Source: Candidatus Borkfalkia stercoripullorum (GTDB lineage Bacteria > Bacillota > Clostridia > Christensenellales > Borkfalkiaceae). From it: DNA of 64,000 nucleotides. The notes beneath the pieces are model-generated. The model worked only from the letters and a program-made list of their open reading frames with translations, was not told where the DNA came from and made no database searches. A program made the position numbers and the translations under genes. The stretch covers positions 16,884-80,883 of the forward strand of contig DWXC01000013.1 in NCBI GenBank assembly GCA_019119395.1, read 5' to 3'. How positions within the stretch are numbered: position 1 is the first letter of the stretch; every line of letters begins with the position of its first letter. Of this stretch, positions 1,245 through 20,253 are shown one piece after another.

Positions 1245-1292
1245 TTTTCCGTTAGAAATCAAAGACCTTTCTGGTCTATGGGAGAGTTCTTT

Positions 1293-3889: not shown

Positions 3890-3902
3890 GAGAGGGCCGA
3901 AC

Positions 3903-4343
3903 ATGAAAAGGATCTATGCGGAAGAAAAGTGGTGCCTCGGCTGCCATCTCTGCGAATACGAATGCGCCTATGCAAATTCGGGGATCGCGGACATGGTCAA
4001 GGCGCTCAAAGGAAAAGACATATTCCCCCGGATCAAAGTGGAGGACGGCGACGGCGTACATTTTGCGGTCAACTGCCGCCATTGCTCCGATCCGATCTGC
4101 GTGAAAAGCTGTATCGCGGGCGCGCTGTCCCGCGACGGCGACGGCATGGTGCTCATCGATAAAGATAAGTGCGTCGGCTGTTATACCTGCGTCATGGTCT
4201 GCCCGTACGGGGCGATCATGCCCGCGGAAGGGGGTAAAGTCGCGCAAAAGTGCATGCTCTGTACCGACAATCAGATGAACGGCGAGCCCAACTGCGTGAA
4301 GCATTGCCCGAACCGCGCGATCGTGTTCGAGGATCGCGGCTGA
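3903..4343 (+). CDS. 4Fe-4S dicluster ferredoxin-like protein
   Basis: Four Cys clusters (CLGCHLCEYEC, CRHCSDPICVKSC, CVGCYTCVMVCP, KCMLC...CVKHCP). Confidence 0.9.
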   Translation: MKRIYAEEKWCLGCHLCEYECAYANSGIADMVKALKGKDIFPRIKVEDGDGVHFAVNCRHCSDPICVKSCIAGALSRDGDGMVLIDKDKCVGCYTCVMVCPYGAIMPAEGGKVAQKCMLCTDNQMNGEPNCVKHCPNRAIVFEDRG

Positions 4344-4357
4344 AAGGAGGAATCGCA

Positions 4358-5587
4358 ATGAAATACGTCATCATAGGGAACTCCACCGCCGCGCTCTACG
4401 CGGTGGAGGGCATCCGTTCCGTCGATAAAAAGGGAAAGATCACGATCGTCTCCGACGAAAAACACCCCGCTTACGGCAGGCCGCTCATCTCGTACTATCT
4501 GTACGGGAAGACCGACTTGGAGCACATCGCTTACCGCCCCGCGGATTTTTACGAAAAGATGGGCGTCGACCTGATTCTGGGGGAACGCGCCGTCAAAATC
4601 GAGCCGAAGGAGAAAAGAGTTCTCCTGCAAAGCGGCAAAAAAGCGGGGTATGACAAACTGCTCGTCGCAACGGGTTCGCGCCCCTTCGTCCCTCCCATGG
4701 AAGGGCTGGAAGAGGTGGAAAACAAATTCAGTTTCATGAAACTGGACGACGCATTTGCGCTGGAAAAGGCGCTCTCGCCCGAAAAGGACGTGCTCATCGT
4801 GGGCGCGGGGCTCATCGGGCTCAAATGTATGGAGGGCATCCTCGGAAGATGCCGCTCCGTCACCGTCATCGACCTTGCCGACAGAATACTGCCGAGCATT
4901 CTCGACGAGGGCGGCGCGGCCTTCGTGCAGAAGCAGCTCGAAAAGAAGGGCGTGCGCTTTCTCCTCGGCGACAGCGCCGCAAAATTCGGCAAAAACGTCG
5001 CCTATACCAAAAACGGGAAGGAAGTGCCTTTCGACGTCCTCGTCGTTGCGGTGGGCGTGCGCCCGAACACGGAACTCGTAAAGGACGCGGGCGGAGAGGT
5101 CGTGCGCGGCATCGTCACCGACGACGGGCAGAGAACGAGCATCCCCGACGTGTTCGCGGCGGGCGACAACTGCGAGAGTTTCGACATCTCTTCGGGCACG
5201 CGGCGCATTTTGGCGCTTCTGCCCAACGCCGCCCTGCAGGGTGAGTGCGCGGGCGTGAACATGGCGGGCGGCGACGCGCATTTCGCCAACGCCGTTCCGA
5301 TGAACGCCATCGGCTTTTTCGGCTCGCACATCGCCACGGCGGGCGTGTACGAAGGGGAATGCTTCGAAGATATCGCGCCCGATCACTATAAAAAGCTCTT
5401 TTACAAAGACAACGAACTCAAAGGCTATATCCTCATCGACTGTATCGAACGGGCGGGCATCTACACTTCCCTTATCAGGAACAAAACGCCCCTGTCGGAG
5501 GTCGATTTCAAACTTTTGGAAAAGTCGCCCGCGCTCATGGCGTTTTCGGCGGCGGCGCGCAGGGAAAAACTTGCGAGGAGGCAATGA
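4358..5587 (+). CDS. NAD(P)/FAD-dependent oxidoreductase
   Basis: AAAGGAGG RBS; IIGNSTAA, LLVATGS, VGAGLIGLK and VFAAGD motifs. Confidence 0.9.
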   Translation: MKYVIIGNSTAALYAVEGIRSVDKKGKITIVSDEKHPAYGRPLISYYLYGKTDLEHIAYRPADFYEKMGVDLILGERAVKIEPKEKRVLLQSGKKAGYDKLLVATGSRPFVPPMEGLEEVENKFSFMKLDDAFALEKALSPEKDVLIVGAGLIGLKCMEGILGRCRSVTVIDLADRILPSILDEGGAAFVQKQLEKKGVRFLLGDSAAKFGKNVAYTKNGKEVPFDVLVVAVGVRPNTELVKDAGGEVVRGIVTDDGQRTSIPDVFAAGDNCESFDISSGTRRILALLPNAALQGECAGVNMAGGDAHFANAVPMNAIGFFGSHIATAGVYEGECFEDIAPDHYKKLFYKDNELKGYILIDCIERAGIYTSLIRNKTPLSEVDFKLLEKSPALMAFSAAARREKLARRQ

Positions 5588-6312
5588 CCATGCGAATAGA
5601 GGCGAACGAAACGCTGCACTTTCAGAACCTGAACGAGTGCATCCGCACCTGCGGCGACAAGGAGATTTATATAGACAACTGCATCGGCCAGCGCTACATC
5701 GGCGCGGGTTCGGGCGGCAAGACCATTCACATCAAGGGCACGCCCGGCAACGCGCTCGGGGCGTATCTCGACGGCACGGACATCGTCGTCGAGGGCAACG
5801 CGCAGGACGCGATCGGCGACACGATGAACGCCGGCTCGATCACCGTGTACGGAAACGCGGGCGACGCCGCGGGCTACGCGATGCGCGGCGGCAGGATATT
5901 CATCAAGGGCGACGCGGGTTACCGCTGCGGAATCCACATGAAGGCGTATAAAGAAAACAAACCCGTCATCGTCATCGGCGGCAGGGCGGGAAGTTTCCTC
6001 GGGGAATATCAGGCGGGCGGCCTGATCGCCGTGCTCGGGCTGAACAAGGAAAACAGGCCGATCGTCGGCAACTTCTGCGGCACGGGGATGCACGGCGGAG
6101 AAATGTACATCCGCGGCGAACTGCCCGCGGGGCTTCCCGAACAGGTCAAGGCGGAAAAACTTACGGGCGTTTCCGACGCTTGGGTGCGCGGTATCCTGCA
6201 GGATTACGCCGCCGCTTTCGGGCTGGATACGAAAAAACTGCTCTCTTCCGTATATTACAGGCTCACGCCCGATACGGAAAATCCCTATCACAGGATGTAT
6301 ACGAACAACTGA
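5584..6312 (+). CDS. GXGXG-domain glutamate synthase subunit (GltB3 type)
   Basis: Repeated GxGxG beta-helix motifs (GQRYIG, GNALGAYLDG, AGSFLGEYQAGG, GTGMHGG). Confidence 0.9.
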   Translation: MTMRIEANETLHFQNLNECIRTCGDKEIYIDNCIGQRYIGAGSGGKTIHIKGTPGNALGAYLDGTDIVVEGNAQDAIGDTMNAGSITVYGNAGDAAGYAMRGGRIFIKGDAGYRCGIHMKAYKENKPVIVIGGRAGSFLGEYQAGGLIAVLGLNKENRPIVGNFCGTGMHGGEMYIRGELPAGLPEQVKAEKLTGVSDAWVRGILQDYAAAFGLDTKKLLSSVYYRLTPDTENPYHRMYTNN

Positions 6313-6323
6313 AAGGAGGAGAT

Positions 6324-6869
6324 ATGGAACGCCTCGCCGTTTATTGCGCTTCGGGCGATATGCTTGCGCGCGTCCGCGAGCGGTTTGAAAAGCGCGGCGT
6401 CGCCGCGCATTATACGACGGACAGCGCCGATGCGGAAAGATATCCCGCGATCGCTTTTATCATGCCGCATTTTTCCGAACCGTGCGTGCGGCAGGCGGCG
6501 GATTTCGCGGAAAAGGGCTGCGGCGTGGTCGTAGCCGTCCGTGCGGAGCATTACGATGACGCGCGCGCTTTTTTTACGGGTACGGGCGTTCTCGTGCTGA
6601 AACTTCCGCTGGACGCGGAATTGTTTGCGCAGGCGCTCGGCATCGCTCAGGACGTCGGCGCGAAACTGCGCCGCGCGAAAGAGGAAACGGAGGGGCTGAA
6701 AAACAAATTCGACGACTTAAAACTCGTAGACCGTGCGAAATGCGCGCTCATACAGTACCTGCGCATGACGGAGCAGGAAGCCCACCGCTTTATCGAAAAG
6801 CAGGCGATGAACAAGCGCGTGCCGAAACGGGAAGTCGCGCTGGAGATCTTAAAGACATACGAAAGCTGA
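6324..6869 (+). CDS. ANTAR-domain RNA-binding regulator with degenerate receiver domain
   Basis: AAAGGAGG RBS; C-terminal LVDRAKCALIQYLRMTEQEAHRFIEKQAMNKRVPKREVALEIL is an ANTAR domain. Confidence 0.85.
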   Translation: MERLAVYCASGDMLARVRERFEKRGVAAHYTTDSADAERYPAIAFIMPHFSEPCVRQAADFAEKGCGVVVAVRAEHYDDARAFFTGTGVLVLKLPLDAELFAQALGIAQDVGAKLRRAKEETEGLKNKFDDLKLVDRAKCALIQYLRMTEQEAHRFIEKQAMNKRVPKREVALEILKTYES

Positions 6870-6878
6870 CACTATGAT

Positions 6879-6924
6879 GAGAGGCAGCCCCCGCCGTTCG
6901 GCGGGGGCTGCCTCTCTTTTTTTT
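6879..6924 (+). terminator. Rho-independent terminator of the glt operon
   Basis: GAGAGGCAGCCCCCGCC-GTTC-GGCGGGGGCTGCCTCTC followed by a T run. Confidence 0.85.
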
Positions 6925-7792
6925 ATGTCGATCCGTCTTTCTTATATGCCGCGGGCGAAACGCCGAAGCGGCTTTTGAACGCTTTGGAAAAGGAGTGTAT
7001 GGTGTCGTACTGCAAAATTTCGGCGGTCTCCGTCACGCTTTTGTTTTCTTCCCCGAGAAGGGAAAGCGAATATTGCAGTTTCTTTTCCAAACAATAAGCG
7101 GTGGGGGAACAGCGCATCGCCGCGTGGAAGAGGTGGGAAAGGTATGACGCGCAGTACCCGAGTTTTTCGGAAAGTTCGGAAAGATTGCGGAAAGAGAGGA
7201 AGTTTTCGTCCAGATAAGAGAGCATGTTGAACAGGACTACTTCCGCGTTGCCCACGCTGGAAAGCCCGATCTTCCGTTCCCCGCGGTAGGCGCGCAGGAA
7301 GTTCGCGAGGATCTGGTCGATCGAAGTTTTGAGCACGAATGCGGACAGCGCGTCGTCCGCCGCATTGTTCGTGATCGCGTTCAGGAAAAATGTGGAAGTG
7401 CGGAAAGGGTCGGAGAGATAGACCTGCCCGTTTTGCTCTTCGATCTTTTTCAGCTCACCGTACAGCGGGTGGCTCTCTTTGAGTTGAAAACCGATGTAAA
7501 AATAGCGCATCGTGGAGTCGGGCGGGGCGCTGATGCAGTGCTTTTGGGGCGGGAAGGTAAAGTTGAGTTCGTTCGCCTTCATCCGCGCGGTCACCCCGTT
7601 GATCGTGTTGAGCGCGACGCCGTCGTACACGTAAGTGATCTCCGTGCAGATCTGTTCGTGTTCGGGGAAGCCCGACCCCGCGTTGCAGAAGCGTTCGCCG
7701 ATCTGCAGAAGGGTGAGATCTCCGAACTCTCTCGGCTGCAAAAAGTACTTGTGGTCGATATGGAATTTTTTTCTGTCGAATCCCTCTTTCAT
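6923..7792 (-). CDS. AraC family transcriptional regulator
   Basis: N-terminal cupin (HEQICTEITYVYDG); C-terminal LSEKLGYCASYLSHLF...VTETAEILQYDTIHSFSKAFKSRFGVSP. Confidence 0.9.
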   Translation of the reverse strand: MKEGFDRKKFHIDHKYFLQPREFGDLTLLQIGERFCNAGSGFPEHEQICTEITYVYDGVALNTINGVTARMKANELNFTFPPQKHCISAPPDSTMRYFYIGFQLKESHPLYGELKKIEEQNGQVYLSDPFRTSTFFLNAITNNAADDALSAFVLKTSIDQILANFLRAYRGERKIGLSSVGNAEVVLFNMLSYLDENFLSFRNLSELSEKLGYCASYLSHLFHAAMRCSPTAYCLEKKLQYSLSLLGEENKSVTETAEILQYDTIHSFSKAFKSRFGVSPAAYKKDGST

Positions 7793-8022
7793 ACCGATAT
7801 TATAACAGCACACGCGCCCAAAAGCAAGAGGTGTGCGCAATTTTGTTTTCGATTATAAAAATAAAAGCAATTCAGGACAAATTATTCAGCAAGGCAGTCC
7901 AAAGACAGCCCCGCCCGTTTGTGCTATAATGGGCGCGGAAAGGGGGCGGAAGATCGGCCGCGCCGTATGCTTCGTGTATCCGTGCGCGCATTTTTCGGTT
8001 TGTTCCGCAATCAGGTGAAAAC

Positions 8023-9288
8023 ATGAAAGAAAAGACAAAAAAGATCATCGCAAAAACCGTATCCCTGTGCCTTTGCGGGGCGCTTGTCGCGGGCGCGGCA
8101 AGTTTTGCCGGCTGTGCCGGCAAGCGCGACCCCGACACGGTGTACATTTCGCGCTGGGCGCTGGAATGGGAAAAGCCGCTGTTCGAGGCGTGGACGGCGG
8201 AGTTCGAGGCGCAAAATCCCGACATCGACGTGGAATGGGAGTTCACGCCCTACACCGCCCACTTCGACAGGCTGCGCACCGACCTTCTGAGCGGAGACGC
8301 GGCGGACATCATTTTCGTGAACAACTGGGGCTGGGAACCGTATTCCGAGATCGACGTGTTCGAAGATCTCGGCGCGGTGGAAAGCCTTTCGGCGACCCGC
8401 TCGGGCCTGCTCGCGGACGCGCAGAACGCTTTCCGTCAGGGGGATAAGGTCGTGGGCATCCCGATCGGCCTCGTTTCCCGCGTGCCCGTCGTCGGTACGG
8501 CGGACTTTGAAAAAGCGGACGTGGAGATCCCTTACGACAGGGATACCGCCTTTACGGGCGATGAACTCGTCGGGCTTCTCGGCGGCGTGGCGGATTCGGT
8601 CGGCAAGGCCATGGGCATCAACATCACGCTGACGGACGCGCTGTTCTCCTTCCTCGCGAGCGTGGGCGCGCCCCTCATCGAGGACGGTAAGATCCTCTGC
8701 AACACCTCCGACGGCATACGCGCCGTGCAGGAGTTCTATGACTTTGCGACGAGCGGCAGGGTCGTTCCTCTTTCGCAAAGTTACGGCGGCATGTACGGCA
8801 CGGCGGACAACGCCGTGATGACGGGCACCTGCGTGGCCGGCTATACCAATCCCGGCGGACTGAAGAGCCTGCTCGATTCGGGATGGGACATCGCCACCAT
8901 TCCCGGCGTGAAAGCGGAAGGGGGAGACGACGTCGTCCTGGCGGACTTCAACACCCTCGTCGTTCCCAAATTCAGTAAAGTCAAAGAAAAGGCTTATAAA
9001 GTCATCGAATGGATGCTCTCCAAGGAAGCGCAGCTCGATTACGCCGTTTTCAGCGACCTTCCGACAAATGCCGAAGCGTTTGAAGAGGTCATGAACGACG
9101 ATGCGAACTGGGATCCGACCCTGTACAGCGCGTACGGTGTCGGCATAGACAATCTGTACGTTCCGCCCGCGCTCTCCACGGATTTCCAGACTTTTCTCGG
9201 CGGATGCCTGAAAAACCTGCTCGACGGCGCGATCGACGCGGAGGAATTCTGCCGCAAGATGCAGGAAGAGGGCGAAGCGTATCTGTAA
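8023..9288 (+). CDS. Carbohydrate ABC transporter substrate-binding lipoprotein
   Basis: Lipobox FAGC; FEAQNPDIDVEWE, LLSGDAADI and WDIATIP family-1 SBP motifs. Confidence 0.88.
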   Translation: MKEKTKKIIAKTVSLCLCGALVAGAASFAGCAGKRDPDTVYISRWALEWEKPLFEAWTAEFEAQNPDIDVEWEFTPYTAHFDRLRTDLLSGDAADIIFVNNWGWEPYSEIDVFEDLGAVESLSATRSGLLADAQNAFRQGDKVVGIPIGLVSRVPVVGTADFEKADVEIPYDRDTAFTGDELVGLLGGVADSVGKAMGINITLTDALFSFLASVGAPLIEDGKILCNTSDGIRAVQEFYDFATSGRVVPLSQSYGGMYGTADNAVMTGTCVAGYTNPGGLKSLLDSGWDIATIPGVKAEGGDDVVLADFNTLVVPKFSKVKEKAYKVIEWMLSKEAQLDYAVFSDLPTNAEAFEEVMNDDANWDPTLYSAYGVGIDNLYVPPALSTDFQTFLGGCLKNLLDGAIDAEEFCRKMQEEGEAYL

Positions 9289-9303
9289 GAAAGGGGGAAC
9301 GAC

Positions 9304-10233
9304 GTGAAAAATTCCGGTTTGGCAAAGAGAGAGCGGATGGGGTGGGTGTTCGTCAGCCCCTGGATCGTCGGCTTTCTGCTTTTGACCCTCGTGCCGCTTC
9401 TGGTTTCGCTGTACATGGCGTTCCACGAGTGGGATATGTTTTCGGATCCCGTCTTTGTGGGGCTGGATAACTTCAAAAAACTGCTGAACACCGCGACGAT
9501 CGAAGGGCAGACATTTTTTGCGGCGCTGTCGAACACGCTCATCTATACGGTATGCACCGCGGTCATCAACATCGTGCTCGGCATCGCGATCGCCTGGGCG
9601 GTCGCCCGTTCGGGCGTTCTGAACACGGTCATGCGCTCGGTCATCTACCTTCCCTGTATGGTCATAGGCGTCGCGTTTTCCATGATGATGGGGCCGATCT
9701 TCGGAAGTTCCGACTATGCCTTCGTCAACCAGATCCTGCATGCGGTAGGGCTTCCTCCGCAGGAATGGCTGTTCACGCACGGGCAGGGCGTGTGGGTCAT
9801 GGTGTTCATGTCCTTTTGGGGCATCGGCGGCGCGATGATCGTGTTTGTTGCGGGTATCAAAACGGTCGACCAGTCCGTTTACGACGCCGCGTCTATCGAC
9901 GGGGCGAGCAACTTCAAGCTGCTTACGAAGATCTGCGTCCCGATGATCTCGCCCGTCATCGTCTATCAGACGATCATGAGCCTCATCTTCGGCATGCAGG
10001 TGTTCGACATCGCGGTCGGGCTGTCCTCGGCGGGCGGCACGGGCGGCAGTTTCGGCATGGGCATAGACAACAGCCTCGCGACCCTCGTCTTTTACCTTTA
10101 TAATAAAGGGTTCAGGGATTTCGAGATGGGAATGGCGAGCGCGATCGGCTGGCTCATCTTCCTCATCACTTCCGTCGTCAGCGTCGGGCTGTTCGCGTTC
10201 GTCCGCAAGACGGGTTATTTTAAAATGGATTGA
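9304..10233 (+). CDS. Carbohydrate ABC transporter permease
   Basis: FVGLDNF and EAA-like loop VYDAASIDGAS; GMASAIGW. Confidence 0.9.
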   Translation: MKNSGLAKRERMGWVFVSPWIVGFLLLTLVPLLVSLYMAFHEWDMFSDPVFVGLDNFKKLLNTATIEGQTFFAALSNTLIYTVCTAVINIVLGIAIAWAVARSGVLNTVMRSVIYLPCMVIGVAFSMMMGPIFGSSDYAFVNQILHAVGLPPQEWLFTHGQGVWVMVFMSFWGIGGAMIVFVAGIKTVDQSVYDAASIDGASNFKLLTKICVPMISPVIVYQTIMSLIFGMQVFDIAVGLSSAGGTGGSFGMGIDNSLATLVFYLYNKGFRDFEMGMASAIGWLIFLITSVVSVGLFAFVRKTGYFKMD

Positions 10234-10241
10234 GGCGGAAT

Positions 10242-11078
10242 ATGCAGAGAAAAAAGATAAAAATGCAGTTTTCGGACGTCATGTTCCGCATCCTCGCGGT
10301 GTTCATGACCCTGCTCATCCTGTTTCCGTTCGCCTGGCTCATTTTGTCGTCCCTGAAAACGAACGCGGAATACTATGTGCAGCCCTCGCCGTTTTTCCCT
10401 TCCGACCCGCAGTGGGACAGGTATGCGTATGTGTTTATCGACCTGTCCTTTTACAGGTATCTCGTCAACAGCATATTTTTGGCGGCCGCGTGCGTCGTCC
10501 TGAACGTGGTGAGCAGTTCGTTCGTGGCTTACGGCATGGCGCGCTTCCGCTTCAAGGGCAAAGGGATCGTGTTCACCGTCATGCTGATGACGATGTTTTT
10601 GCCCGCGCAGGTGTCCTTCATACCGCAGTTTCTCATCTTCGACCGGCTGGAGTGGATCAACACCTATCTGCCGATCATCGTGCCGCAGCTTTTCGGCGCG
10701 GCGGCGAATATCCTTCTCGTCTCCCAGTTCATGAAGGCGATCCCGAAGGAAATGGACGAGGCCGCCATGATGGACGGGTGCAACAGTTTTGCCATATGGT
10801 TCCGCATCATACTGCCGCAGTCGGTCGCGGTGCTCATCGTCGTCGCGATCTCGGCGTTTTTGGGAAGCTGGAAGGACAGCATGAGCCCGCTCATCTACTT
10901 GCGCGACGAAGAGTTATACACCGTGCCCGTGTCGCTGATGTACTTTCAGGCGCCCGATCAGAACAGTTATCTCTTATTGCTTACGGGCGTCGTGATCTCG
11001 ATCGTTCCCACGCTCGTCGTGTATGTCTGCCTGCAAAAATGGATGGATAAGGGCATCTTCATTGCCGATCTCAAATAA
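10242..11078 (+). CDS. Carbohydrate ABC transporter permease
   Basis: IPKEMDEAAMMDGC EAA motif; AYGMARFRFKGK. Confidence 0.9.
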   Translation: MQRKKIKMQFSDVMFRILAVFMTLLILFPFAWLILSSLKTNAEYYVQPSPFFPSDPQWDRYAYVFIDLSFYRYLVNSIFLAAACVVLNVVSSSFVAYGMARFRFKGKGIVFTVMLMTMFLPAQVSFIPQFLIFDRLEWINTYLPIIVPQLFGAAANILLVSQFMKAIPKEMDEAAMMDGCNSFAIWFRIILPQSVAVLIVVAISAFLGSWKDSMSPLIYLRDEELYTVPVSLMYFQAPDQNSYLLLLTGVVISIVPTLVVYVCLQKWMDKGIFIADLK

Positions 11079-11098
11079 AAAGCCATAAGGAGGAAAAA

Positions 11099-13534
11099 AT
11101 GAAAAAGATTGTAAGTGTGCTGTGTTGTTTCGCGCTGCTGTTCGGCTTTGCCGCGTGCGATTCCTCGCCCGCGCAGGGGCATACGGAATACGACGCCGAT
11201 ACCGACGGCAAGATCGCCGAGGAGATCCTCTCGGCGGAAAAGAACAAAGTGATCTTTCCGAACGGTGAGGACGAGTCGTTCCGCATCCGTTCCGTCAAGG
11301 AGAGCGAAGATTCCGTTCGGACGGCGAATAAAAAGTTCGAACTCGACATCGCCGCCGACGTGACCGGCAACGTATACGACCCCGAAGAGGTGGACGTTTA
11401 CGGGCAGTTCGTATCCCCTTCGGGCGAACTGTACACCATGCCGGCGTTCTGGTTCTCCGATTACGAGCGCTCTTTCGACCCGCTCGACGAAAGCGCGGAA
11501 TACCCGATGAACGGGTATGTGGAACAGGGCGACGTGCGCATCGTCGGCGTCATCGACGAGGTAAACGGCGTCAAAAAGCCCGTCGCCAAGGCGAAGTTCG
11601 ACTCCGCGTCCGGCTCGTACAGCAACGCGGGGGCGATCCTCAACGTGGGCGACGTTTCCCGCCTGCACGACGGCGTTTCGGTATGGCTCCGCAAGGACGC
11701 GTCCCTTGAAGCCGAAACCCTTTACCTCGGCTTTTATCAGAGCGCGGGCGAGGCGTACATCGAACTCCCCGAACTGACCGAGGAGTGGAAGGAATACACC
11801 TTCGCGTGGGAAGATTTTACGGCAAACAATACGGACGGGTCTTCGGAACTTCTTTCCCTCGGTACGATGTACAGCGGCTATGTGCAGACGCGCGGCGCGG
11901 CGGTATCGGGCAACGTATATATTTCCGACCTGCGCGCGGTGCGCGTCGGGTTTGAAAACTCCGTCGTGCTTTCCGACTTTGTCAGCAGCGAACTCGCCAA
12001 TTACAAGGCGGGAGAACTGAACGGCACGGAGGTCATGACCCCGCTGAACGAAAGTTGGTTCAAACTGCGCTTCCGATTCGACGAGACGGGCGAATGGACG
12101 TACAGGATCGTCGCGGAAAAGGAAGGGGAGGTCAAGGCGGAATATGTTTCGTCCGTCACGGCGGAAGCCAACCCGAACGAGGAAGAGAACAGGGGACTCA
12201 TCCGCGTCGAACCGACCCAAAAGCGCAACTTTATATTCGAAGACGGCACGCCCTACGTGCCGATCGGGCAAAACGTCGCCTATACCGTAGACCCGCAGAG
12301 GGGTTCGTACGATTACGAGGTGTATTTCCCGAAAATGGCGGCAGCCGGCATGAATTTCTGCCGCGTATGGCTGACTTACATCGGTTACGGCGTGCAGAGC
12401 ACGGAGGGCGGCATCCTCGATTTCGATTACCGTCAGGACAAGGCATACGCCTTCGACTGCATCATAGAGCTGGCGGCGCAGTACGGGCTGTATCTGCAGA
12501 TCCCGCTCATGACCTTCTCGCGTTTCCATGAAGAGAGCGCGACGGACGACGTGGAACACAGGAGCTGGGATTCGAGCCCCTTCAACGTCAACAACGGCGG
12601 CTATCTCGAAAAGCCCGAAGAGTTCTGGTCTGACGCCCGCGCCCGCGAAGACACGAAAAAGCTGTACCGCTATTATGTGGCGCGCTGGGGATATTCGCGC
12701 AACATCCTCAACTGGGAGATCATGAACGAGATCGGGGAATCGAGCAGTTACGACCAGCAGAGGGCAAAGGCCTGGGCGGAAGACATCGGCGGCTACATGC
12801 ACTCCGTCGACCCGTACGACCATCTCGTTTCTTTAAGCTCCAAAGATTTTTACGACGAAGTGTATTCGGCATCTTCTCTCGATTTTGTCAGTATCCACAG
12901 TTATGTATGGGGTTCGGCGTACCCGTCCAGTTCGGCGGACATCACCTCGGGCGTGCGCGACTATTTCGGCAAGCCCGTCATGATCGGCGAGATCGGCGCG
13001 AGCGGCAATTCTGCGGAAGAGGACGCGCTCATCGACCCCGACGGCTATGTGATGCGGCAAACGGCGTTCACCGCGCCCATGAGCGGCGCCGCGGGCGGCG
13101 CGATGCTCTGGTGGTGGCTGCATATCAACGACGACGATCTGTACGGCAATGTAACGCCTGCGGCGAATTACTTCTCGCTCCTTCCCGACGATTTCGTGAC
13201 CATGGACAGCATGGAAGGGCAGGATTACGTGATCACGGCGCAGAACGCGGCGATCGCCAATCAGATCCGCGCGCTCGGATTTGTTTCGGGCGATGCCGTG
13301 TACGCCTATCTCTATGACATCCGTTACAGTTACGCCCAGCCCGATCCCGGCGAACTCGCAGGCGTTTCGGCGGCGTTCAACGGGCTTTCGGACGGCAGTT
13401 ATACGGTGCGCGTGTTCGACACCCGCACGGGCGAAGTGATCTCGACGAATACCGCGTCCGCTTCGGGCGGAACGCTGACCGTCGCGCTCGCGGCATGGCA
13501 CGGCGACGTGGCGCTTCTCATCGAAAAGGCATAA
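11099..13534 (+). CDS. Secreted lipoprotein glycoside hydrolase (DUF5060-like N-terminus plus clan-A/GH5-like TIM barrel)
   Basis: Lipobox FAAC; FEDGTPYVPIGQN, MNFCRVW, WEIMNE (acid/base), IHSY, KPVMIGEIG (nucleophile). Confidence 0.75.
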   Translation: MKKIVSVLCCFALLFGFAACDSSPAQGHTEYDADTDGKIAEEILSAEKNKVIFPNGEDESFRIRSVKESEDSVRTANKKFELDIAADVTGNVYDPEEVDVYGQFVSPSGELYTMPAFWFSDYERSFDPLDESAEYPMNGYVEQGDVRIVGVIDEVNGVKKPVAKAKFDSASGSYSNAGAILNVGDVSRLHDGVSVWLRKDASLEAETLYLGFYQSAGEAYIELPELTEEWKEYTFAWEDFTANNTDGSSELLSLGTMYSGYVQTRGAAVSGNVYISDLRAVRVGFENSVVLSDFVSSELANYKAGELNGTEVMTPLNESWFKLRFRFDETGEWTYRIVAEKEGEVKAEYVSSVTAEANPNEEENRGLIRVEPTQKRNFIFEDGTPYVPIGQNVAYTVDPQRGSYDYEVYFPKMAAAGMNFCRVWLTYIGYGVQSTEGGILDFDYRQDKAYAFDCIIELAAQYGLYLQIPLMTFSRFHEESATDDVEHRSWDSSPFNVNNGGYLEKPEEFWSDARAREDTKKLYRYYVARWGYSRNILNWEIMNEIGESSSYDQQRAKAWAEDIGGYMHSVDPYDHLVSLSSKDFYDEVYSASSLDFVSIHSYVWGSAYPSSSADITSGVRDYFGKPVMIGEIGASGNSAEEDALIDPDGYVMRQTAFTAPMSGAAGGAMLWWWLHINDDDLYGNVTPAANYFSLLPDDFVTMDSMEGQDYVITAQNAAIANQIRALGFVSGDAVYAYLYDIRYSYAQPDPGELAGVSAAFNGLSDGSYTVRVFDTRTGEVISTNTASASGGTLTVALAAWHGDVALLIEKA

Positions 13535-13545
13535 GGAGGGAAAAG

Positions 13546-15888
13546 ATGAAAAAGAGGTTGTTCGGCCTGATATTGGCCTTTATGCTCCTGTTTGCGTTCG
13601 CGGGATGCGAACAGGAAGTGCCCGAGGGAGAGATCCCCGAAGGATCGTTCACGATCGTATCGCCGTCCGACGGCGATACGGATGTACAGATCTATCCGAC
13701 GATCGGCTGGACTGCGGAAGCGAACGCGGACTTGTACCGCGTCGAGATCGCCTCGGACGCGGCGTTCGAAAACACGATCGCGGAGGAGACGGCGGAAGGG
13801 CTGTCTTACACCCTTTCCGACCCGCTCGACCACGCGGCGAAGTATTATCTGCGCGTGATCGCGCTGTCCGAGGAAGAGGGGAAGACGTACGCGCTTTCCT
13901 ATAAGCAGATCTCCTTCACGACGACCGCGGAGCATTCCACGGATGCGCCCGATTATACGCAATCGAGGACGATCTACGATTTCGAAGAGTATACCGACAC
14001 GGCGGCGCTGCGCGAGCGGTTTACCCTGCACACGGCGGGCGACGCGCTCAACATCGAATTGCTTGAGACGGGCGGCAACGCGGGCAGCAAAGGCATGTCG
14101 CTCTCGTACACGCCCGGCGTGAACGGCTGGGCGGGCGCGCTTTCCTCCCTGCCTGCGGACAAAAAAGTCTGGAGCGGCGCAAAGGGAATCCGCTTCTGGA
14201 TCGATACGGACGGGTCGGGCGACACCTTCGAGATCCGTTTCGGCAAGCGCGGCTTCCAGTCCTGGAGCGCGACGTTCGCGATGAACAATCCGGACGGGAT
14301 GTACGTTTCCGTTCCCTTCTCCGCGTTCGAGGATGCGGGCGGCGGCGACGGGATTTTAGACCTTTCGGGCATCACGCGCCTGTGGTTCTTCGTGCAGGGT
14401 TCGCGCCCCGCGCAGATCGTTATCGACGACGTCACCATCGGTTCGGACGAAAATTACACGACGGACACCCGTTCCGCCGCGGAAGAGGCGAACAAGGCGC
14501 AGCTCGGCACGGTGGACGACTTCGAAAGCTATACCGACGTTTCCGCGGTGGACGGCAAATGGACGTTCGAGTCGATCGGCGAAAAGTCGCTCTTGCAGAG
14601 CGGCGCGTTCGGCGGAACGCAGAGCCTTTCGCTCACGCCGTCCGCGGCGTGGTCTACCATGGGCATCTCCATGGCGTATACCGACTTTTCCGACGTAAAT
14701 TCGATCACCTTCAAGGCGAGCGCGGGCGTGTACGTCGTGCAGCTTGCCAGCGGCTGGAACGTCATCGAAAAGGAGATCGCCGCCGCATACGACGGGCAGA
14801 CGATCGGCGTCAATATTTCAGAACTTTTGCCGCAGACCTCGTCCATGACGGTGGACATCGGCCAGATCGACCTGTTCCGCATCGGCATCAAGGATAAGAG
14901 CGGGACGGCGGTCACGATCGACGACGTCGCCTATTCGTCCGAAACTTTCGTGCCCGAAGACAACAAGGCGGGGCTTTTGGAAGATTTCGAAACGGACGGC
15001 CTCAACGCTTTCAACACGAAGTGGGCGGCAACGGGAACGGTCGCGCCGAGCCTTGTCGAAAAGAACGGTTCGAAGGCGATCAGCCTTGCCGCAAACGGCG
15101 CGTTCGGCCTGGAGGCGACGGGCTATAACCTCGCCGCGCTCGATTTTTCGGATACGGTCGGCGTGAAAATGGACATCACCATGAACCAGTCGGGCAAGGT
15201 GCTCATCCAGATCGGTTCGTACGGGAACGTGTATACTTACGAAAAGGAGTTCTACGGGCCTGCGAACAACATCGATTGCCTCGTCTGCGATTTTGACGCG
15301 ATGACGCTGAAACAAGACGGAGTCAGTTCGGGCGATTTAAACAAAGACGCGATCAATTTCTTCCGCATAGACGTCACGACGTACGGCGAATACACGGTCA
15401 CCCTCGACAACATCGGATTCTACGGGGAAGATCACGATTACGCCGCCGTCACGGTGGACGATTTCGAATCGTATACGGGCGACGAAGACGTGCGGGCTGC
15501 CTGGAACAATACCGCGGTCGCGCTGACGGACGTGGACGGAAACAAAGCCATGACCCTGACGACGGTAAACGGCTGGAACGGGCTGCAATTCAATTTTGCG
15601 GGAACGGGAGACATCGGATCGGCAAACGATTATCAGAACTGTTTTGCCGTGCGCGTGAAGATCACGGCAGAGCAGCCCGCGGAACTTACAGTTAAACTTA
15701 CCCGCTGGGAGAACGGCATCGAAAAGAAGTACAACCTCGTTGCAGGCGAAAACGTCATCGTGGCGTATTTTACCGATCTTAAAGGAACGGCGCTGTCCGA
15801 TTATATACTCAACTCGCTGACGCTCGGGGTCACTTATTACGGCACGGCGGACTTCACCTTCGACGACGTGGAATTTTTGAGAGGATAA
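13546..15888 (+). CDS. Lipoprotein with an Fn3/Ig-like domain and about four galactose-binding-like (CBM11-like) modules
   Basis: Lipobox FAGC; repeated (I/V/L)xDFE(S/T/E)...xxDDVxF units; WSGAKGIRFWIDTDGSG is CBM11-like. Confidence 0.65.
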   Translation: MKKRLFGLILAFMLLFAFAGCEQEVPEGEIPEGSFTIVSPSDGDTDVQIYPTIGWTAEANADLYRVEIASDAAFENTIAEETAEGLSYTLSDPLDHAAKYYLRVIALSEEEGKTYALSYKQISFTTTAEHSTDAPDYTQSRTIYDFEEYTDTAALRERFTLHTAGDALNIELLETGGNAGSKGMSLSYTPGVNGWAGALSSLPADKKVWSGAKGIRFWIDTDGSGDTFEIRFGKRGFQSWSATFAMNNPDGMYVSVPFSAFEDAGGGDGILDLSGITRLWFFVQGSRPAQIVIDDVTIGSDENYTTDTRSAAEEANKAQLGTVDDFESYTDVSAVDGKWTFESIGEKSLLQSGAFGGTQSLSLTPSAAWSTMGISMAYTDFSDVNSITFKASAGVYVVQLASGWNVIEKEIAAAYDGQTIGVNISELLPQTSSMTVDIGQIDLFRIGIKDKSGTAVTIDDVAYSSETFVPEDNKAGLLEDFETDGLNAFNTKWAATGTVAPSLVEKNGSKAISLAANGAFGLEATGYNLAALDFSDTVGVKMDITMNQSGKVLIQIGSYGNVYTYEKEFYGPANNIDCLVCDFDAMTLKQDGVSSGDLNKDAINFFRIDVTTYGEYTVTLDNIGFYGEDHDYAAVTVDDFESYTGDEDVRAAWNNTAVALTDVDGNKAMTLTTVNGWNGLQFNFAGTGDIGSANDYQNCFAVRVKITAEQPAELTVKLTRWENGIEKKYNLVAGENVIVAYFTDLKGTALSDYILNSLTLGVTYYGTADFTFDDVEFLRG

Positions 15889-15889
15889 G

Positions 15890-16573
15890 ATGTATAAAAA
15901 ACTTGCGAGCGGGCTGATCGTTTCCTGCCAGGCGGCGGAAGGGGAAGTTTTTCACGGGCTCGGGCTCATGCGTTACATGGCAAAAGCGGCAAAGGCGGGC
16001 GGCGCGGCGGGCATCCGCGCCCTCGCCGACGAGATCCCTTCCATCCGCGAGGAGACAGACCTGCCCGTGATAGGGCTTGTCAAAAAGAAATACGAAGGGA
16101 GCGAAGTCTACATCACGCCCACGCGGCGGGAAGCGGACGTCCTGCTCGAAACGGGGTGCGACGTCATCGCGATCGACGCGACGGCGCGCCCCCGCCCGCA
16201 AGGGGAAACGACGGAATCGCTCTTTTCCTACATAAAAAAGGCCGCGCCCGGCATCGCCGTCATGGCGGACTGCGACACGCTCGAAAGCGCGCTCGTCGCC
16301 GATAAGATCGGGTTCGATTACGCCGGCACGACCATGCGCGGATACACGCGCGAAACGGCGGGCATCGGCATTCCCGATTACGCTTTCCTGAAAGAATTCT
16401 GCGGTGCGCTCCGCCATGCGAAGCCGATCGCTGAAGGGGGCATCTGGGAGGCCGGGCAGCTTAAAAAGGTGCTGGAATGTAAGCCTTATGCGGTCGTGAT
16501 CGGTACGGCGATCACCCGTCCCGCGGACATAACGGCAAGATTTACGAAAATAATGGCGGAAATGAGAGGCTGA
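15890..16573 (+). CDS. nanE: N-acetylmannosamine-6-phosphate 2-epimerase
   Basis: LIVSCQA, GAAGIRA, LPVIGLVKK, VYITPT, IAIDATARPRP and VVIGTAITRP motifs. Confidence 0.92.
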   Translation: MYKKLASGLIVSCQAAEGEVFHGLGLMRYMAKAAKAGGAAGIRALADEIPSIREETDLPVIGLVKKKYEGSEVYITPTRREADVLLETGCDVIAIDATARPRPQGETTESLFSYIKKAAPGIAVMADCDTLESALVADKIGFDYAGTTMRGYTRETAGIGIPDYAFLKEFCGALRHAKPIAEGGIWEAGQLKKVLECKPYAVVIGTAITRPADITARFTKIMAEMRG

Positions 16574-16574
16574 T

Positions 16575-18092
16575 ATGCAAAGACGAAAAAAAATACTCAT
16601 GCTCCCTCTGGACGAGCGGCCGTGCAACTATCTTTACCCCAAAATGCTTTTCGAGGGCAATCCCGATTACGAACTTTTGATGCCCCCGCGCGAAAAGCTG
16701 GGCGTCAAAAAGAGGGCGGCGCGCTTCGAAGATATCCGCGCGTTCCTTTTGGAAAACGCGAAAGGGGCTGACATCGCCGTGCTGAGCATCGATATGCTGC
16801 TGTACGGCGGGCTTCTGCCCGGGCGGATCCATACGCACAAAAAGGAAGAACTGCTCGGGCGGCTGGAGCTGCTCAAAGAGATCAAAAAAGAAAATCCCGC
16901 GCTGAAAATTTACGCGTTTCATCTCATCATGCGCTGCCCGCAGTATTCGTCTTCCGAAGAAGAACCGGATTATTACGGAAGCTGCGGAAGGGAGATCTAT
17001 CTCTACGGTGAGGCGGTCTGCAAACAGCGTCTCGGGCTTCCCGACGGGGGCAATGCGGACAGATACCGCGCCGTCGTCGGCCCGTATCTGTCCGATTACC
17101 TCGTCCGCCGCAAGGTGAATGCGGAAATGAACTGTGCCGTCGTCGACCTCATCGGTGCGTGCATAGATTTCCTCGTCATCCCGCAGGACGACAGTTCCGT
17201 TTACGGCTTCGTCGCGGAAGATCAGCAGGCGGTGCGCGACCACATCGCAAAGCGGGGAAAGCAGGAAAAAGTGCTCATCTATCCCGGAGCGGACGAAGTG
17301 GGTATGACCCTTTTGGCGCGCGCCGTGAACGAAGACCGCGGAGACGTGCCCCGCATTTCGGTATTTTACAGTTCGGTAAAAGCGCCGTTCATCGTTCCGA
17401 AATATGAGGACAGGATGTTGGGCGAATCGGTCAAATTGCAGATCGCGGCGGCGGGGTGCAGGAGCAACCGGGCTTTTTGCGAGGACGATATCCTGCTTGC
17501 CGTCAATGCGCCCGCGGGCAGGATGCGCGAAGCGGACGAGCAGTTCCGCCTGCGCCCCGACGGCGATTATTCGGTAGGGCGGAGCGTGCTTTTGTTCGCG
17601 CAGGAAGTGGCCGATCTCGCCTCCCGCGGCAAAACGGTCGCCGTCGCGGACGTAGCCTACGGCAACGGCAGCGACGCGGAACTCGTCACCCTGCTCGACA
17701 GGGCGGGCGTTTCCATGCGCGTGGCTTCGTACAGCGGCTGGAATACTTCGGGCAACAGTTTGGGAACGGCGATCTCCGCGGGCGTTTTGCGGCGGATCTT
17801 CGGCGATCTGCCCGCGCTGACCGATTTTCTCGCCCTGCGCTATTTTGAAGACGCGGGCTTCTGCGCATGGGCGCGCCGCGCCGTCATGGACCGGCTGTGC
17901 GAGTCGAATACCGACTACCGCGACCTGGGGAGCAGGGAACGGGAAGTTTCCGCAGACGTGGTGCGTGAAGTCGATGCGTTTATGCGGGAAAAGATGAAAC
18001 GGGTGGCCGCCGATTACGAGATCGTATCCTGCCGCATGCCGTGGAACCGTATGTTCGAAACGGAGATGATCGTCCATGCGAAAAGAGGATAA
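16575..18092 (+). CDS. DUF4127 family protein
   Basis: PLDERPCNY, SIDMLLYGGL, IPQDDS, IYPGADEVG and YSGWNTSGNSLGT motifs. Confidence 0.8.
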   Translation: MQRRKKILMLPLDERPCNYLYPKMLFEGNPDYELLMPPREKLGVKKRAARFEDIRAFLLENAKGADIAVLSIDMLLYGGLLPGRIHTHKKEELLGRLELLKEIKKENPALKIYAFHLIMRCPQYSSSEEEPDYYGSCGREIYLYGEAVCKQRLGLPDGGNADRYRAVVGPYLSDYLVRRKVNAEMNCAVVDLIGACIDFLVIPQDDSSVYGFVAEDQQAVRDHIAKRGKQEKVLIYPGADEVGMTLLARAVNEDRGDVPRISVFYSSVKAPFIVPKYEDRMLGESVKLQIAAAGCRSNRAFCEDDILLAVNAPAGRMREADEQFRLRPDGDYSVGRSVLLFAQEVADLASRGKTVAVADVAYGNGSDAELVTLLDRAGVSMRVASYSGWNTSGNSLGTAISAGVLRRIFGDLPALTDFLALRYFEDAGFCAWARRAVMDRLCESNTDYRDLGSREREVSADVVREVDAFMREKMKRVAADYEIVSCRMPWNRMFETEMIVHAKRG

Positions 18093-18945
18093 AATTCTCT
18101 GTCTGGATCTCGGCGGCACGAAACTGCGCGCGGGCATCGTGTCCGGCGGCGTGCTTTCGTGCAAAAAAGTGTTTTCCACCTGCACGTCGCGCGGCAGGGA
18201 AGGGATCGAGCAAACGCTCCTTGCGGGGCTGTCCGCTTATGAGAGTGAAAGTTTTTCGGGCGTCGCCGCGGCGAGCGCGGGAAACATCGACCCGGAAAGC
18301 GGCGCCGTGATCTATGCGACGGATAACCTGCCCGGCTATACCGGGTTTCGGCTTGCGGACTTTTTGAGCGAAAAAACGGAGCTCCCGTGCGCCTGCGTCA
18401 ACGACGGCTGCGCGGCGGCGCTCGGCGAATACGCGCTTTCCGGAAGAAAAGATGAAATCATGCTCTTCCTCACCCTGGGCACGGGCGTGGGCGGTGCTTT
18501 CGTAAAAGACGGAGAAATTTTGCTCGGATTCGACGGCATGCTGGGGCATATGCAGCTCGTGCGCGGAGGGAAAAAGTGCAACTGCGGCAGGGAAGGCTGC
18601 GCCGAACGCTATGCGAGCGGCAGCGCTTTCCGCTCGCTCCTTCGTGAAAAAGGCGTGCCGTACGGCACGCCCGAAGAGATCTGGGCGGCGTACGCGCGCG
18701 GGGAGAGATCTGTTTGCGAATGCGTGAACGCGTGGGCACAAAACGTCCGCGCCGCTTTGGAAATGTATTATGCGGCCGTGCCGTTCGGCAGGGCGGTTCT
18801 GGGCGGCGGCATGTCCGAATCGGGCGCGTATTGGATAGACCTCGTCCGCTCGGATAAATTTGCCGTCGGGCTTGCCCGCGCGGGCGACGACGCGGGGCTG
18901 TTGGGCGCTTACGAATACTTCCGAAAGAGGTATGCGGACAGATAA
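18076..18945 (+). CDS. ROK family sugar kinase (ManNAc/GlcNAc kinase-like)
   Basis: LDLGGTK, NDGCAAALGE, LTLGTGVGG, GHM...CNCGREGCAERYASG. Confidence 0.88.
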   Translation: MRKEDKILCLDLGGTKLRAGIVSGGVLSCKKVFSTCTSRGREGIEQTLLAGLSAYESESFSGVAAASAGNIDPESGAVIYATDNLPGYTGFRLADFLSEKTELPCACVNDGCAAALGEYALSGRKDEIMLFLTLGTGVGGAFVKDGEILLGFDGMLGHMQLVRGGKKCNCGREGCAERYASGSAFRSLLREKGVPYGTPEEIWAAYARGERSVCECVNAWAQNVRAALEMYYAAVPFGRAVLGGGMSESGAYWIDLVRSDKFAVGLARAGDDAGLLGAYEYFRKRYADR

Positions 18946-19035: not shown

Positions 19036-19554
19036 TCAGCTGTTTTTGAGTGCGACGTTGACCTGCGAGTAGTCATATCCGACGCTTTTGAGAAGGATAT
19101 GCAGCACGACGTGCAGGAGCGTTGCCGTGTCGTAATGACATTCGACGAATAAATTCCGCGAAATTTCCGCGGGGCTGCGCATGGTGTCGGGCACGGCGTC
19201 GACAAAGACCCTGTTTCTTCCGGAAGCCGTTCCCCGAAGAGCATACAATTTCGCCTTTCGGTCGGGATCGTTGATGCAGTCTTTCAGCAATTCGACGGCG
19301 ACTTGTTTCCACGTTCCCAAATTGACGCGCGGCCGCCCGGGCAGAAAAAGCCCCGTGGGTTTTTTGCCCTTGAAATCGTTGAGCGGCAAATTGATACTCA
19401 CGATGCTTTCAAAGCTGAACGGCTCGGGCGCGGAATGCGTTTCTTCCGCCATGGCTTCGGCAATGCCCCGATCCACGCGCGCCGAAATTTCGTTTACGAG
19501 CGCTTGCATTTTTGCGACATCCTCTTTGAGTTTCTGCATTTCCTGCAAAGTCAT
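19036..19554 (-). CDS. Hypothetical protein (N-terminal coiled coil plus putative DNA-binding C-terminal domain)
   Basis: 172-aa ORF from ATG 19554 after GGAG; natural-looking composition; lies downstream of tRNA-Tyr. Confidence 0.65.
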   Translation of the reverse strand: MTLQEMQKLKEDVAKMQALVNEISARVDRGIAEAMAEETHSAPEPFSFESIVSINLPLNDFKGKKPTGLFLPGRPRVNLGTWKQVAVELLKDCINDPDRKAKLYALRGTASGRNRVFVDAVPDTMRSPAEISRNLFVECHYDTATLLHVVLHILLKSVGYDYSQVNVALKNS

Positions 19555-20046
19555 TTTTTTCTCCTCCCGTATAGAATAAAGATTCGGCAAAACAACAATA
19601 GCACGTGTTACCGAATATTGTATATAACGATTTTGCCGTTTTGTCAAGGGATATTTTGTATTTTTCTTAAAATTTTCGGAAGGGCGGAGGAGCCGACGAA
19701 AAGAGACTGTCCCGGGAAAGGGTTTCCGAACAAAAACGACGGGGTCTTTATATGATTTTGAAAATGCCTGCGTTCGGTTTGCATCCGCATTCTGTATGAC
19801 GCGTCCGTTAAAAGATCCCCGATAAAACACCGAAATTGTGTATTGTTGGGGAGGGGCTGATCGTGTAAACGGGGCTGTTTTTTTCGGCAAAGCGGCGCGC
19901 TGCGGAGCAGGGGATGAGGTTTGGGCGCGAAGAGACCGTATCGAACCCGCGCGAACTGCCGCGCAGATCCGTGCGAACTGTCGGAACGGCATTTGCGAAA
20001 AATATTTAAACCAAAAAGCGACACTCGGAAGAGTGTCGCTTTTGGG

Positions 20047-20131
20047 TGGTGGGAAGAGGTAGATTCGAACTACCGAAGTCGTAGACGTCAGATTTACAGT
20101 CTGATCCATTTGGCCGCTCTGGAATCTTCCC
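20047..20131 (-). tRNA. tRNA-Tyr(GTA)
   Basis: Reverse complement GGGAAGATTCCAGAGCGGCCAAATGGATCAGACTGTAAATCTG...GGTAGTTCGAATCTACCTCTTCCCACCA, with long variable arm. Confidence 0.95.
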
Positions 20132-20177
20132 GTATTCAATTGATGCTCCGCCCGCGTACAGGCAGCGGTAAAACGAA

Positions 20178-20253
20178 TGGAGCTGGTGATTGGAATCGAA
20201 CCCACAACCTGCTGATTACAAATCAGCTGCTCTGCCAGTTGAGCTACACCAGC
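20178..20253 (-). tRNA. tRNA-Thr(TGT)
   Basis: Reverse complement GCTGGTGTAGCTCAACTGGCAGAGCAGCTGATTTGTAATCAG...CCAGCTCCA. Confidence 0.95.

Follow-up and report, generated by a model that had tools for sequence, protein, structure and literature searches.

Which sugar does a bacterium harvest with an operon that encodes NanE, a 2-epimerase of N-acetylmannosamine 6-phosphate, and a ROK-family kinase, without any sialic acid lyase? The question is raised by a locus at positions 6923–18945 of a 64,000-nucleotide stretch of the Candidatus Borkfalkia stercoripullorum genome (contig DWXC01000013.1; hereafter the window), where a divergent AraC gene is followed by an eight-gene plus-strand operon for a solute-binding protein (SBP), two CUT1 permeases, an 811-aa hydrolase, a 797-aa carbohydrate-binding-module (CBM) protein, NanE, a DUF4127 protein and a ROK kinase. 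An earlier sequence-only reading had described this nine-gene, tightly spaced layout, and all genes were confirmed, with overlapping or tight intergenic gaps across the operon (−17 to +20 bp). The same reading had proposed an N-acetylmannosamine (ManNAc) glycan rather than sialic acid as the substrate, and this is also the best-supported reading of the present data. We consider it moderately probable that this locus of a chicken-gut bacterium, under AraC control, is a Gram-positive-type operon for polysaccharide utilisation, scavenging a foreign, β-manno-configured ManNAc glycan with no sialic acid involved. The proposal stands on an intact NanE in a genome without an entry for sialic acid and on the amino-sugar back ends of related loci; the substrate of the hydrolase and the role of DUF4127 are its more tentative parts.

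NanE (15890–16573, +) scored well above the curated cut-offs of both Pfam PF04131 (172.7 bits; cut-off 27) and NCBIfam NF002231 (246.5 bits; cut-off 189). The active site of Staphylococcus aureus NanE (SaNanE) consists of Gln11, Arg40, Lys63, Asp124, Glu180 and Arg208, with Tyr149 contacting the methyl group of the acetamide (PMC8482478). In an alignment to 6VVA, the window protein has Q14, R43, K65 (LPVIGLVKK), D127 (MAD), Y152 (GYT), the Glu of IAEG and the Arg of AITRP, Tyr152 being the counterpart of SaNanE Tyr149. By score and by alignment NanE is genuine, with its catalytic residues intact.

The genome that holds the window (1.87 Mb, 39 contigs) is 92% complete, and all genome-wide absences given here are limited by the missing 8%. 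The locus itself has no sialidase, nanA or nagA, as the sequence-only reading had noted, and none was found in the genome. For the NanA model TIGR00683 (cut-off 382 bits), the best match, at 134 bits, was DapA, which scores 330 bits to TIGR00674 and is located in a dapA-dapB-asd cluster; a second DHDPS-family protein scored 71 bits, below every cut-off, and no protein of the genome matched the sialidase family PF13088 (BNR_2) at E ≤ 0.01. Wall teichoic acid linkage units, secondary cell-wall polymers and many capsules contain ManNAc as a building block. The genome has neither a UDP-GlcNAc 2-epimerase (PF02350) nor a TagA/WecG ManNAc transferase (PF03808), so that ManNAc reaching NanE should be foreign and not self-made by the usual route, which fits the earlier suggestion that it derives from the polymers of other organisms. 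The organism apparently synthesises no wall polymer of its own that contains ManNAc.

Gene context was read for 13 members of the hydrolase family, window included (L088 is a second contig encoding the L087 protein; L090 and L099 are truncated by the end of their contigs). Amino-sugar genes adjoin the importer/hydrolase/CBM cassette in all 13, and a GH130, GH36, cellobiose 2-epimerase-type or mannose-6-phosphate isomerase gene lies beside it in none. Orthologous cassettes have hydrolases 39–82% identical and SBPs 44–70% identical. The window and L004–L007 share the order SBP, two permeases, hydrolase, CBM protein, NanE, DUF4127 and ROK (variant 1), to which L097 (hydrolase 65% identical) adds a GH1 gene in first place (variant 1'). 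In variant 2 (L091; hydrolase 61% identical), the CBM gene is followed by DUF4127, GH1 and AGE, the last scoring 344 bits to N-acylglucosamine 2-epimerase and ~100 to cellobiose 2-epimerases. This AGE stands in place of NanE and ROK, which shows that the common need is the conversion of ManNAc to GlcNAc.

Variant 3 (L086, L087, L089, L090, L098 and L099) has hydrolases 43–50% identical to that of the window and 39–69% identical to each other, so the synteny is old. Here, the fully read loci carry NagA, NagB, AP_endonuc_2 and GFO genes upstream from a diverging AraC gene, L098 being without NagA; on the other side of AraC follow GFO, in some cases GH1, and then SBP, two permeases, hydrolase and CBM protein. 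Across variants, GH1 is a BglA-type β-glucosidase with 60–76% identity. What the cassettes have in common is that a manno-configured N-acetylhexosamine is converted to GlcNAc or GlcNAc-6-P and catabolised. The back end comes in three exchangeable forms (NanE/ROK, AGE, and GFO/AP_endonuc_2/NagB with NagA), a natural experiment on the sugar that the cassette delivers.

The variant-3 loci (L086–L090, L098, L099) were also seen to hold, beside NagB, a xylose-isomerase-like TIM protein together with GFO/IDH/MocA oxidoreductases, of which there are two or three; this arrangement may replace NanE/AGE, or glycoside hydrolysis, by a route that depends on oxidation. An AP_endonuc_2-GFO pair on contig C8 of the window genome was considered as a variant-3 back end and rejected, being part of a uxaC-uxuA hexuronate cluster. 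On C8 (62050–66441 and 71146–73053; L092), that cluster of AP_endonuc_2, GFO/IDH/MocA, UxaC and UxuA genes lies a few kb from a GH20C-type β-N-acetylhexosaminidase, the sole candidate cytoplasmic N-acetylhexosaminidase found in the genome.

The hydrolase gene (11099–13534, +) encodes a GH5-like surface lipoprotein of clan GH-A. Its architecture combines an N-terminal DUF5060 β-sandwich, split by an inserted β-domain of ~180 aa (residues 126–307), with a TIM barrel and a C-terminal β-sandwich. The (β/α)8 barrel bears an Asn-Glu acid/base on strand 4 and a Glu nucleophile on strand 7, as is characteristic of the clan; the acid/base E544 (N543-E544, NWEIMNE), the nucleophile E631 (IGEIG) and the lipobox C20 were all invariant in 29 homologues. 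In Pfam, the protein had no match to PF00150, for which the homologue P0135 scored 26.7 bits, and its DUF5060 match was weak (22 bits vs the cut-off of 27.2). PF26410 ('GH5_mannosidase') weakly matched some members of the family, which is small, with 44 clusters among 5.8 billion proteins.

A phmmer search against the PDB matched the hydrolase to 9GMJ and 9GPC at E 3e-55, and Foldseek with a structural model (pLDDT 88) returned the same entries at E 1e-39 with a TM score of 0.88 on the target. The nearest solved relative is ManDH5, a GH5 β-D-mannanase from Dictyoglomus thermophilum (PDB 9GMJ, 9GPA, 9GPC-G) that was solved with mannobiose and mannotetraose; the weaker matches were likewise GH5 mannanases. 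E544 aligns with E303 of ManDH5, which is changed to Gln in the E303Q entries. Taken by itself, the ManDH5 homology would suggest an endo-β-1,4-mannanase, while the context argues for an amino-sugar substrate. By general glycosidase chemistry, the axial 2-acetamido group of ManNAc should be unable to assist catalysis, so a β-ManNAc linkage would need the classical Glu/Glu retaining mechanism. For this reason, kinship with mannanases would be expected of an enzyme acting on a β-manno-configured substrate such as β-ManNAc, with gene context suggesting the putative specificity at C2. The sequence-only reading had named a plain mannanase as the finding that would undo its proposal, and this came half true: ManDH5 is the nearest relative, whereas gene context argues against plain mannan. 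As the family is small and its nearest relative was crystallised with mannan oligosaccharides, C2 specificity is directly testable. Our literature search returned no paper naming an N-acetylmannosaminidase and nothing on ManDH5.

The second surface lipoprotein lies in an open reading frame (ORF) of 797 aa at 13495–15888, with the real start at M17 (feature 13543–15888, +). It consists of an Ig-like module, one CBM_11 module (ORF residues 151–325) and three further modules of ~160 aa. The CBM11 family PF03425 (cut-off 27) scored 33.7 bits on the whole protein and 39 bits on module 151–325; the three remaining modules had no CBM_11 match. All four ~160-aa modules share a DDFExY motif at the start and DDV at the end, which is the only likeness of the three to the CBM_11 one, and BLAST found neither internal repeats in this protein nor similarity between it and the insert of the hydrolase. 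Its earlier description as a 'multi-CBM' lipoprotein therefore needs correcting, since a single one of the four modules is significantly CBM_11. Lipoprotein signal peptides were found on the SBP (FAGC), the hydrolase (FAAC) and the CBM protein (FAGC after the internal Met at 13543), and none on NanE, DUF4127 or ROK. The importer is formed by the SBP (8023–9288, +; CUT1 solute-binding lipoprotein, SBP_bac_1/8) and two CUT1 permeases with BPD_transp_1 domains (9304–10233 and 10230–11078, both +), and no ATPase gene for it lies within the operon. No close solved relative of the SBP was found, its best PDB match (E 1e-10) being an unrelated binder.

The cytoplasmic DUF4127 protein (16575–18092, +; 505 aa) matched PF13552 almost end to end (473 bits; 488 of the 489 profile positions) and is encoded once in the genome. 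The family has more than 2,000 homologues; when 301 genomes of the class were sampled, 9 had it, a number of positives too small for a genome-level contingency test. The nearest relatives of the window protein are 80% identical (in an uncultured Firmicute) and 53% identical (in Christensenellaceae). An AlphaFold2 model built with 44 sequences (pLDDT 94.8, pTM 0.94) shows alternating β-strands and α-helices with long helical inserts. Against the PDB, Foldseek with this model found nothing at E < 1e-3 (TM < 0.3), and neither phmmer nor a 44-sequence profile found anything at E ≤ 10; in Pfam at E ≤ 10, the protein matched DUF4127 alone. No paper mentioning DUF4127 or PF13552 was found in the literature search.

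In a comparison of 80 species, 67 positions of DUF4127 were at least 97% conserved, including D13, E14, R15, C17, N18, H86, D205, D206, D240, E278, D359, W389, N390, T391, E425, D426 and nine Arg. An Fe-S or metal cluster bound by three cysteines was considered, C17, C121 and C430 being invariant in the 44-sequence alignment, and was dropped when the 80 species showed C121 replaced in 7 and C430 in 6, which leaves C17 as the only invariant one of the three. The co-occurrence of DUF4127 with nanE that the sequence-only reading had marked for checking is borne out by these loci: the distance from DUF4127 to NanE is at most 300 bp in 41 of 80, at most 2.5 kb in 55 and at most 10 kb in 58. For ROK, 17 loci have the gene no more than 2.5 kb away and 36 no more than 10 kb. 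A NanA-like gene was found within 10 kb in none (0/80); the one DHDPS-family gene near DUF4127 is 48% identical to DapA of the window genome. Other recurrent neighbours are a PF12831 flavoprotein, GHL10, GH38 and a group of HexNAc enzymes and regulators comprising RpiR, GH20C, GH84, NAGPA, NagA and NagB. A role of DUF4127 as a substitute for NagA, which is missing here and in a Thermus control, was rejected on account of the loci in which NagA and NagB adjoin it. The window genome also has two NAGPA-like (phosphodiester glycosidase) homologues at C2:70255–70677 and C13:106374–106778, a family that adjoins DUF4127 elsewhere.

The ROK kinase (18076–18945, +) is NanK-like, overlaps DUF4127 by 17 nt, and has the zinc motif CxCGxxGC (CNCGREGC) and no helix-turn-helix. 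It scored below the NanK cut-offs (129 bits vs 283 for NF003461; 124.7 vs 450 for NF047821), and among its PDB matches a Thermus glucokinase and NanK were equally close.

The locus is represented in expression data. From AraC to ROK it is covered by contigs from four chicken-gut metatranscriptomes, all of one study, which are mostly 98–99% and at least 95% identical to the window. Contigs start at 7969–7999 and bridge the SBP-permease, permease-hydrolase, hydrolase-CBM and DUF4127-ROK junctions, and the summed depth, a crude measure of expression, was 0 in all four runs beyond 18996, ~50 bp past the ROK stop. These data fit one transcript from ~7970 to ~18990. Upstream of it, the 183-bp spacer between AraC and SBP holds a promoter-like site for araC (7880–7852, −), and a promoter-like site for the operon, AAGACA-17-TATAAT with an extended TG, lies at 7902–7930 (+). 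The DNA runs that contain the locus were mostly chicken-gut metagenomes.

From these parts we propose the following pathway. The two surface lipoproteins, a GH5 mannanase-like retaining hydrolase and a CBM11-type binder, would capture and fragment the ManNAc glycan, and the CUT1 importer, by virtue of its family, would bring the fragments in. In the cytoplasm, DUF4127 may release or unmask ManNAc from the imported fragment, which is the weakest step. The ROK kinase would then yield ManNAc-6-P, and NanE, whose family and active site are established, would turn it into GlcNAc-6-P. NagA was not found in the genome by HMM searches or by tblastn with two NagA queries; GlcNAc-6-P would be deacetylated and deaminated elsewhere, probably by a PIG-L protein and NagB on contig C38. 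Its minus strand carries, at 5647–10281 (L084), genes for an APH-family kinase, a CBM9-like 174-aa ORF, a PIG-L (LmbE-type) deacetylase (7626–8468), NagB (6884–7615, −) and, next to NagB, LacI. The lack of nagA noted by the sequence-only reading thus extends to the genome, with the qualifier that in the closest relative nagA adjoins nagB, at the position that PIG-L occupies here; NagA is also present in two of three other variant-1 genomes checked. Because of this positional match, we favour a putative replacement of NagA by PIG-L over a NagA gene lying in the missing 8%. Alternatively, PIG-L may serve a route from GlcNAc via GlcN to GlcN-6-P.

Several observations weigh against this pathway. 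The closest characterised relative of the hydrolase is a genuine β-mannanase, and acceptance of a 2-acetamido group at the −1 subsite is only presumed; the genome has a mannose-6-phosphate isomerase, so mannose could be used; and the ROK kinase looks indistinguishable from a glucokinase by sequence. GlcNAc-6-P, with no NagA found in a genome 92% complete, is without a proven outlet. The metatranscriptome contigs may contain DNA carry-over. Most DUF4127-NanE loci have no nearby kinase, and GH1 is ancestral in the system and stands beside DUF4127 in two variants, so that DUF4127 need not be a glycosidase. Its many invariant Arg suggest an anionic substrate, and would also fit a kinase, a phospho-glycosidase or an enzyme that removes an acidic substituent. 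Some of these points would be explained by a plain locus for plant β-mannan or glucomannan, with an endo-mannanase, a manno-oligosaccharide importer and a ROK manno- or glucokinase, in which NanE and DUF4127 are hitch-hikers of another pathway. The GH5 mannanases among the hydrolase matches, the weak PF26410 matches in its family, the occurrence of CBM_11 in β-glucan binders, the isomerase, the ambiguous kinase and the GH1 β-glucosidase of sister operons all agree with it. We nevertheless regard it as improbable: NanE, DUF4127 and ROK are coupled to the cassette at spacings of −17 to +1 bp, none of the 13 cassettes has a gene of the expected mannan type whereas all have amino-sugar genes, the variant-2 epimerase scores far higher as an N-acylglucosamine than as a cellobiose 2-epimerase, and no GH130 or GH1 was found in the genome.

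If ManNAc is indeed the sugar, the assignment of DUF4127 becomes the point of divergence. Between the 'tailoring step' of the sequence-only reading and a glycoside-cleaving step, neither is better supported. An endo-enzyme and a CUT1 importer should deliver oligosaccharides, no other cytoplasmic hydrolase lies in the operon, and the genome has no GH1, AGE or GH130, which favours cleavage; DUF4127 is the sole cytoplasmic hydrolase candidate in the operons of the window and L004–L007. In a bolder reading, which we rate as less probable than not, the GH5-like lipoprotein would be an endo-β-N-acetylmannosaminidase, its mannanase scaffold retuned for an axial 2-acetamido sugar, and DUF4127 the founder of a new cytoplasmic enzyme fold that frees ManNAc from imported fragments. 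If true, both activities would belong to no described family and would allow gut Clostridia to live on the ManNAc-containing wall polymers of other bacteria. Rather doubtful, in our estimate, is the variant in which ManNAc is processed and DUF4127 is no glycosidase, acting instead as a kinase or phosphotransferase or taking a substituent off ManNAc (for example phosphate, glycerol-phosphate, an acyl group or a pyruvate ketal), with cleavage left to GH1 in the relatives and to GH20C or unknown enzymes in the window organism. GH1 and DUF4127 do occur together in L091 and L097, many loci lack an obvious kinase (ROK in 17 against NanE in 55 of 80 within 2.5 kb), nine Arg and many Asp/Glu are invariant, and the protein is like no glycosidase fold. 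Set against this are the five operons with no other cytoplasmic hydrolase, in the window's case in a genome without GH1; moreover, the window has both ROK and DUF4127, so the latter is not simply the kinase, and Pfam at E up to 10 revealed no P-loop or known kinase motif. A cryptic sialic-acid-type pathway, in which DUF4127 stands in for the NanA lyase without being its orthologue or acts on another nonulosonic or acidic sugar, we hold to be very improbable. In many loci DUF4127 does take the place that NanA has in Firmicute nan operons (order importer, DUF4127, NanE, ROK, RpiR), and its invariant Arg would suit a carboxylate; yet the genome has no sialidase, the surface enzyme is of the mannanase-type GH5 and not GH33, sister cassettes free of DUF4127 still have NagB, with NagA in all but one, and neither an aldolase-like fold nor the context of a Schiff-base lysine was detected in DUF4127. 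Knowing which reaction DUF4127 catalyses would close a widespread gap in the catabolism of amino sugars.

At the upstream end, the locus is bordered by a strong hairpin terminator (6879–6916; 17-bp stem and T-run) that separates it from glutamate-synthase-like genes. These form a split set at 1278–6312 that ends at this terminator and encodes an amidotransferase-like domain, an FMN/4Fe-4S protein, a pyridine-nucleotide-disulfide oxidoreductase and a GXGXG (FwdC-like) protein. The AraC-family regulator (6923–7840, −) has AraC_binding (cupin-type) and HTH_18 domains; translation probably begins at M17 (7792), since the L097 orthologue aligns from residue 17. On the other side, 3' of ROK, a 389-aa ORF without a family match (19036–20205, −) had a metatranscriptome depth of 0; its N-terminal two thirds look non-coding, and a shorter C-terminal ORF from about MTLQEMQK may be real.

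Among known systems, the nan clusters of Firmicutes consist of a SAT-type ABC importer, NanA, the ROK kinase NanK, NanE and an RpiR-type NanR. The window locus resembles them in uniting a CUT1 importer, ROK and NanE in one operon that ends in GlcNAc-6-P, but it has no NanA, sialidase or RpiR, is under an AraC regulator, carries DUF4127 at the position of the lyase, and deploys a GH5-type hydrolase and a CBM11-type binder at the surface. With ManDH5, the hydrolase shares the DUF5060 β-sandwich, TIM barrel and C-terminal sandwich as well as the GEIG nucleophile motif, whereas it is only ~30% identical, is a lipoprotein, has the additional β-domain of ~180 aa and stands among amino-sugar genes. 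The N-glycan locus of S. pneumoniae encodes GH20C, ROK, GH38 and GH125 and likewise combines a surface enzyme, an SBP-dependent importer and cytoplasmic finishing enzymes; GH20C, GH38 and GH84 occur in other DUF4127 loci, while the window locus has none of these exo-glycosidases, and it leads to NanE, an enzyme that the breakdown of N-glycans can do without. The Bacteroides-type ManNAc route uses an AGE-family GlcNAc 2-epimerase, a likeness found not in the window but in variant 2 (L091), where DUF4127 and AGE replace NanE/ROK. Overall, the system is akin to nan clusters and Gram-positive polysaccharide-utilisation loci, built around two uncharacterised activities.

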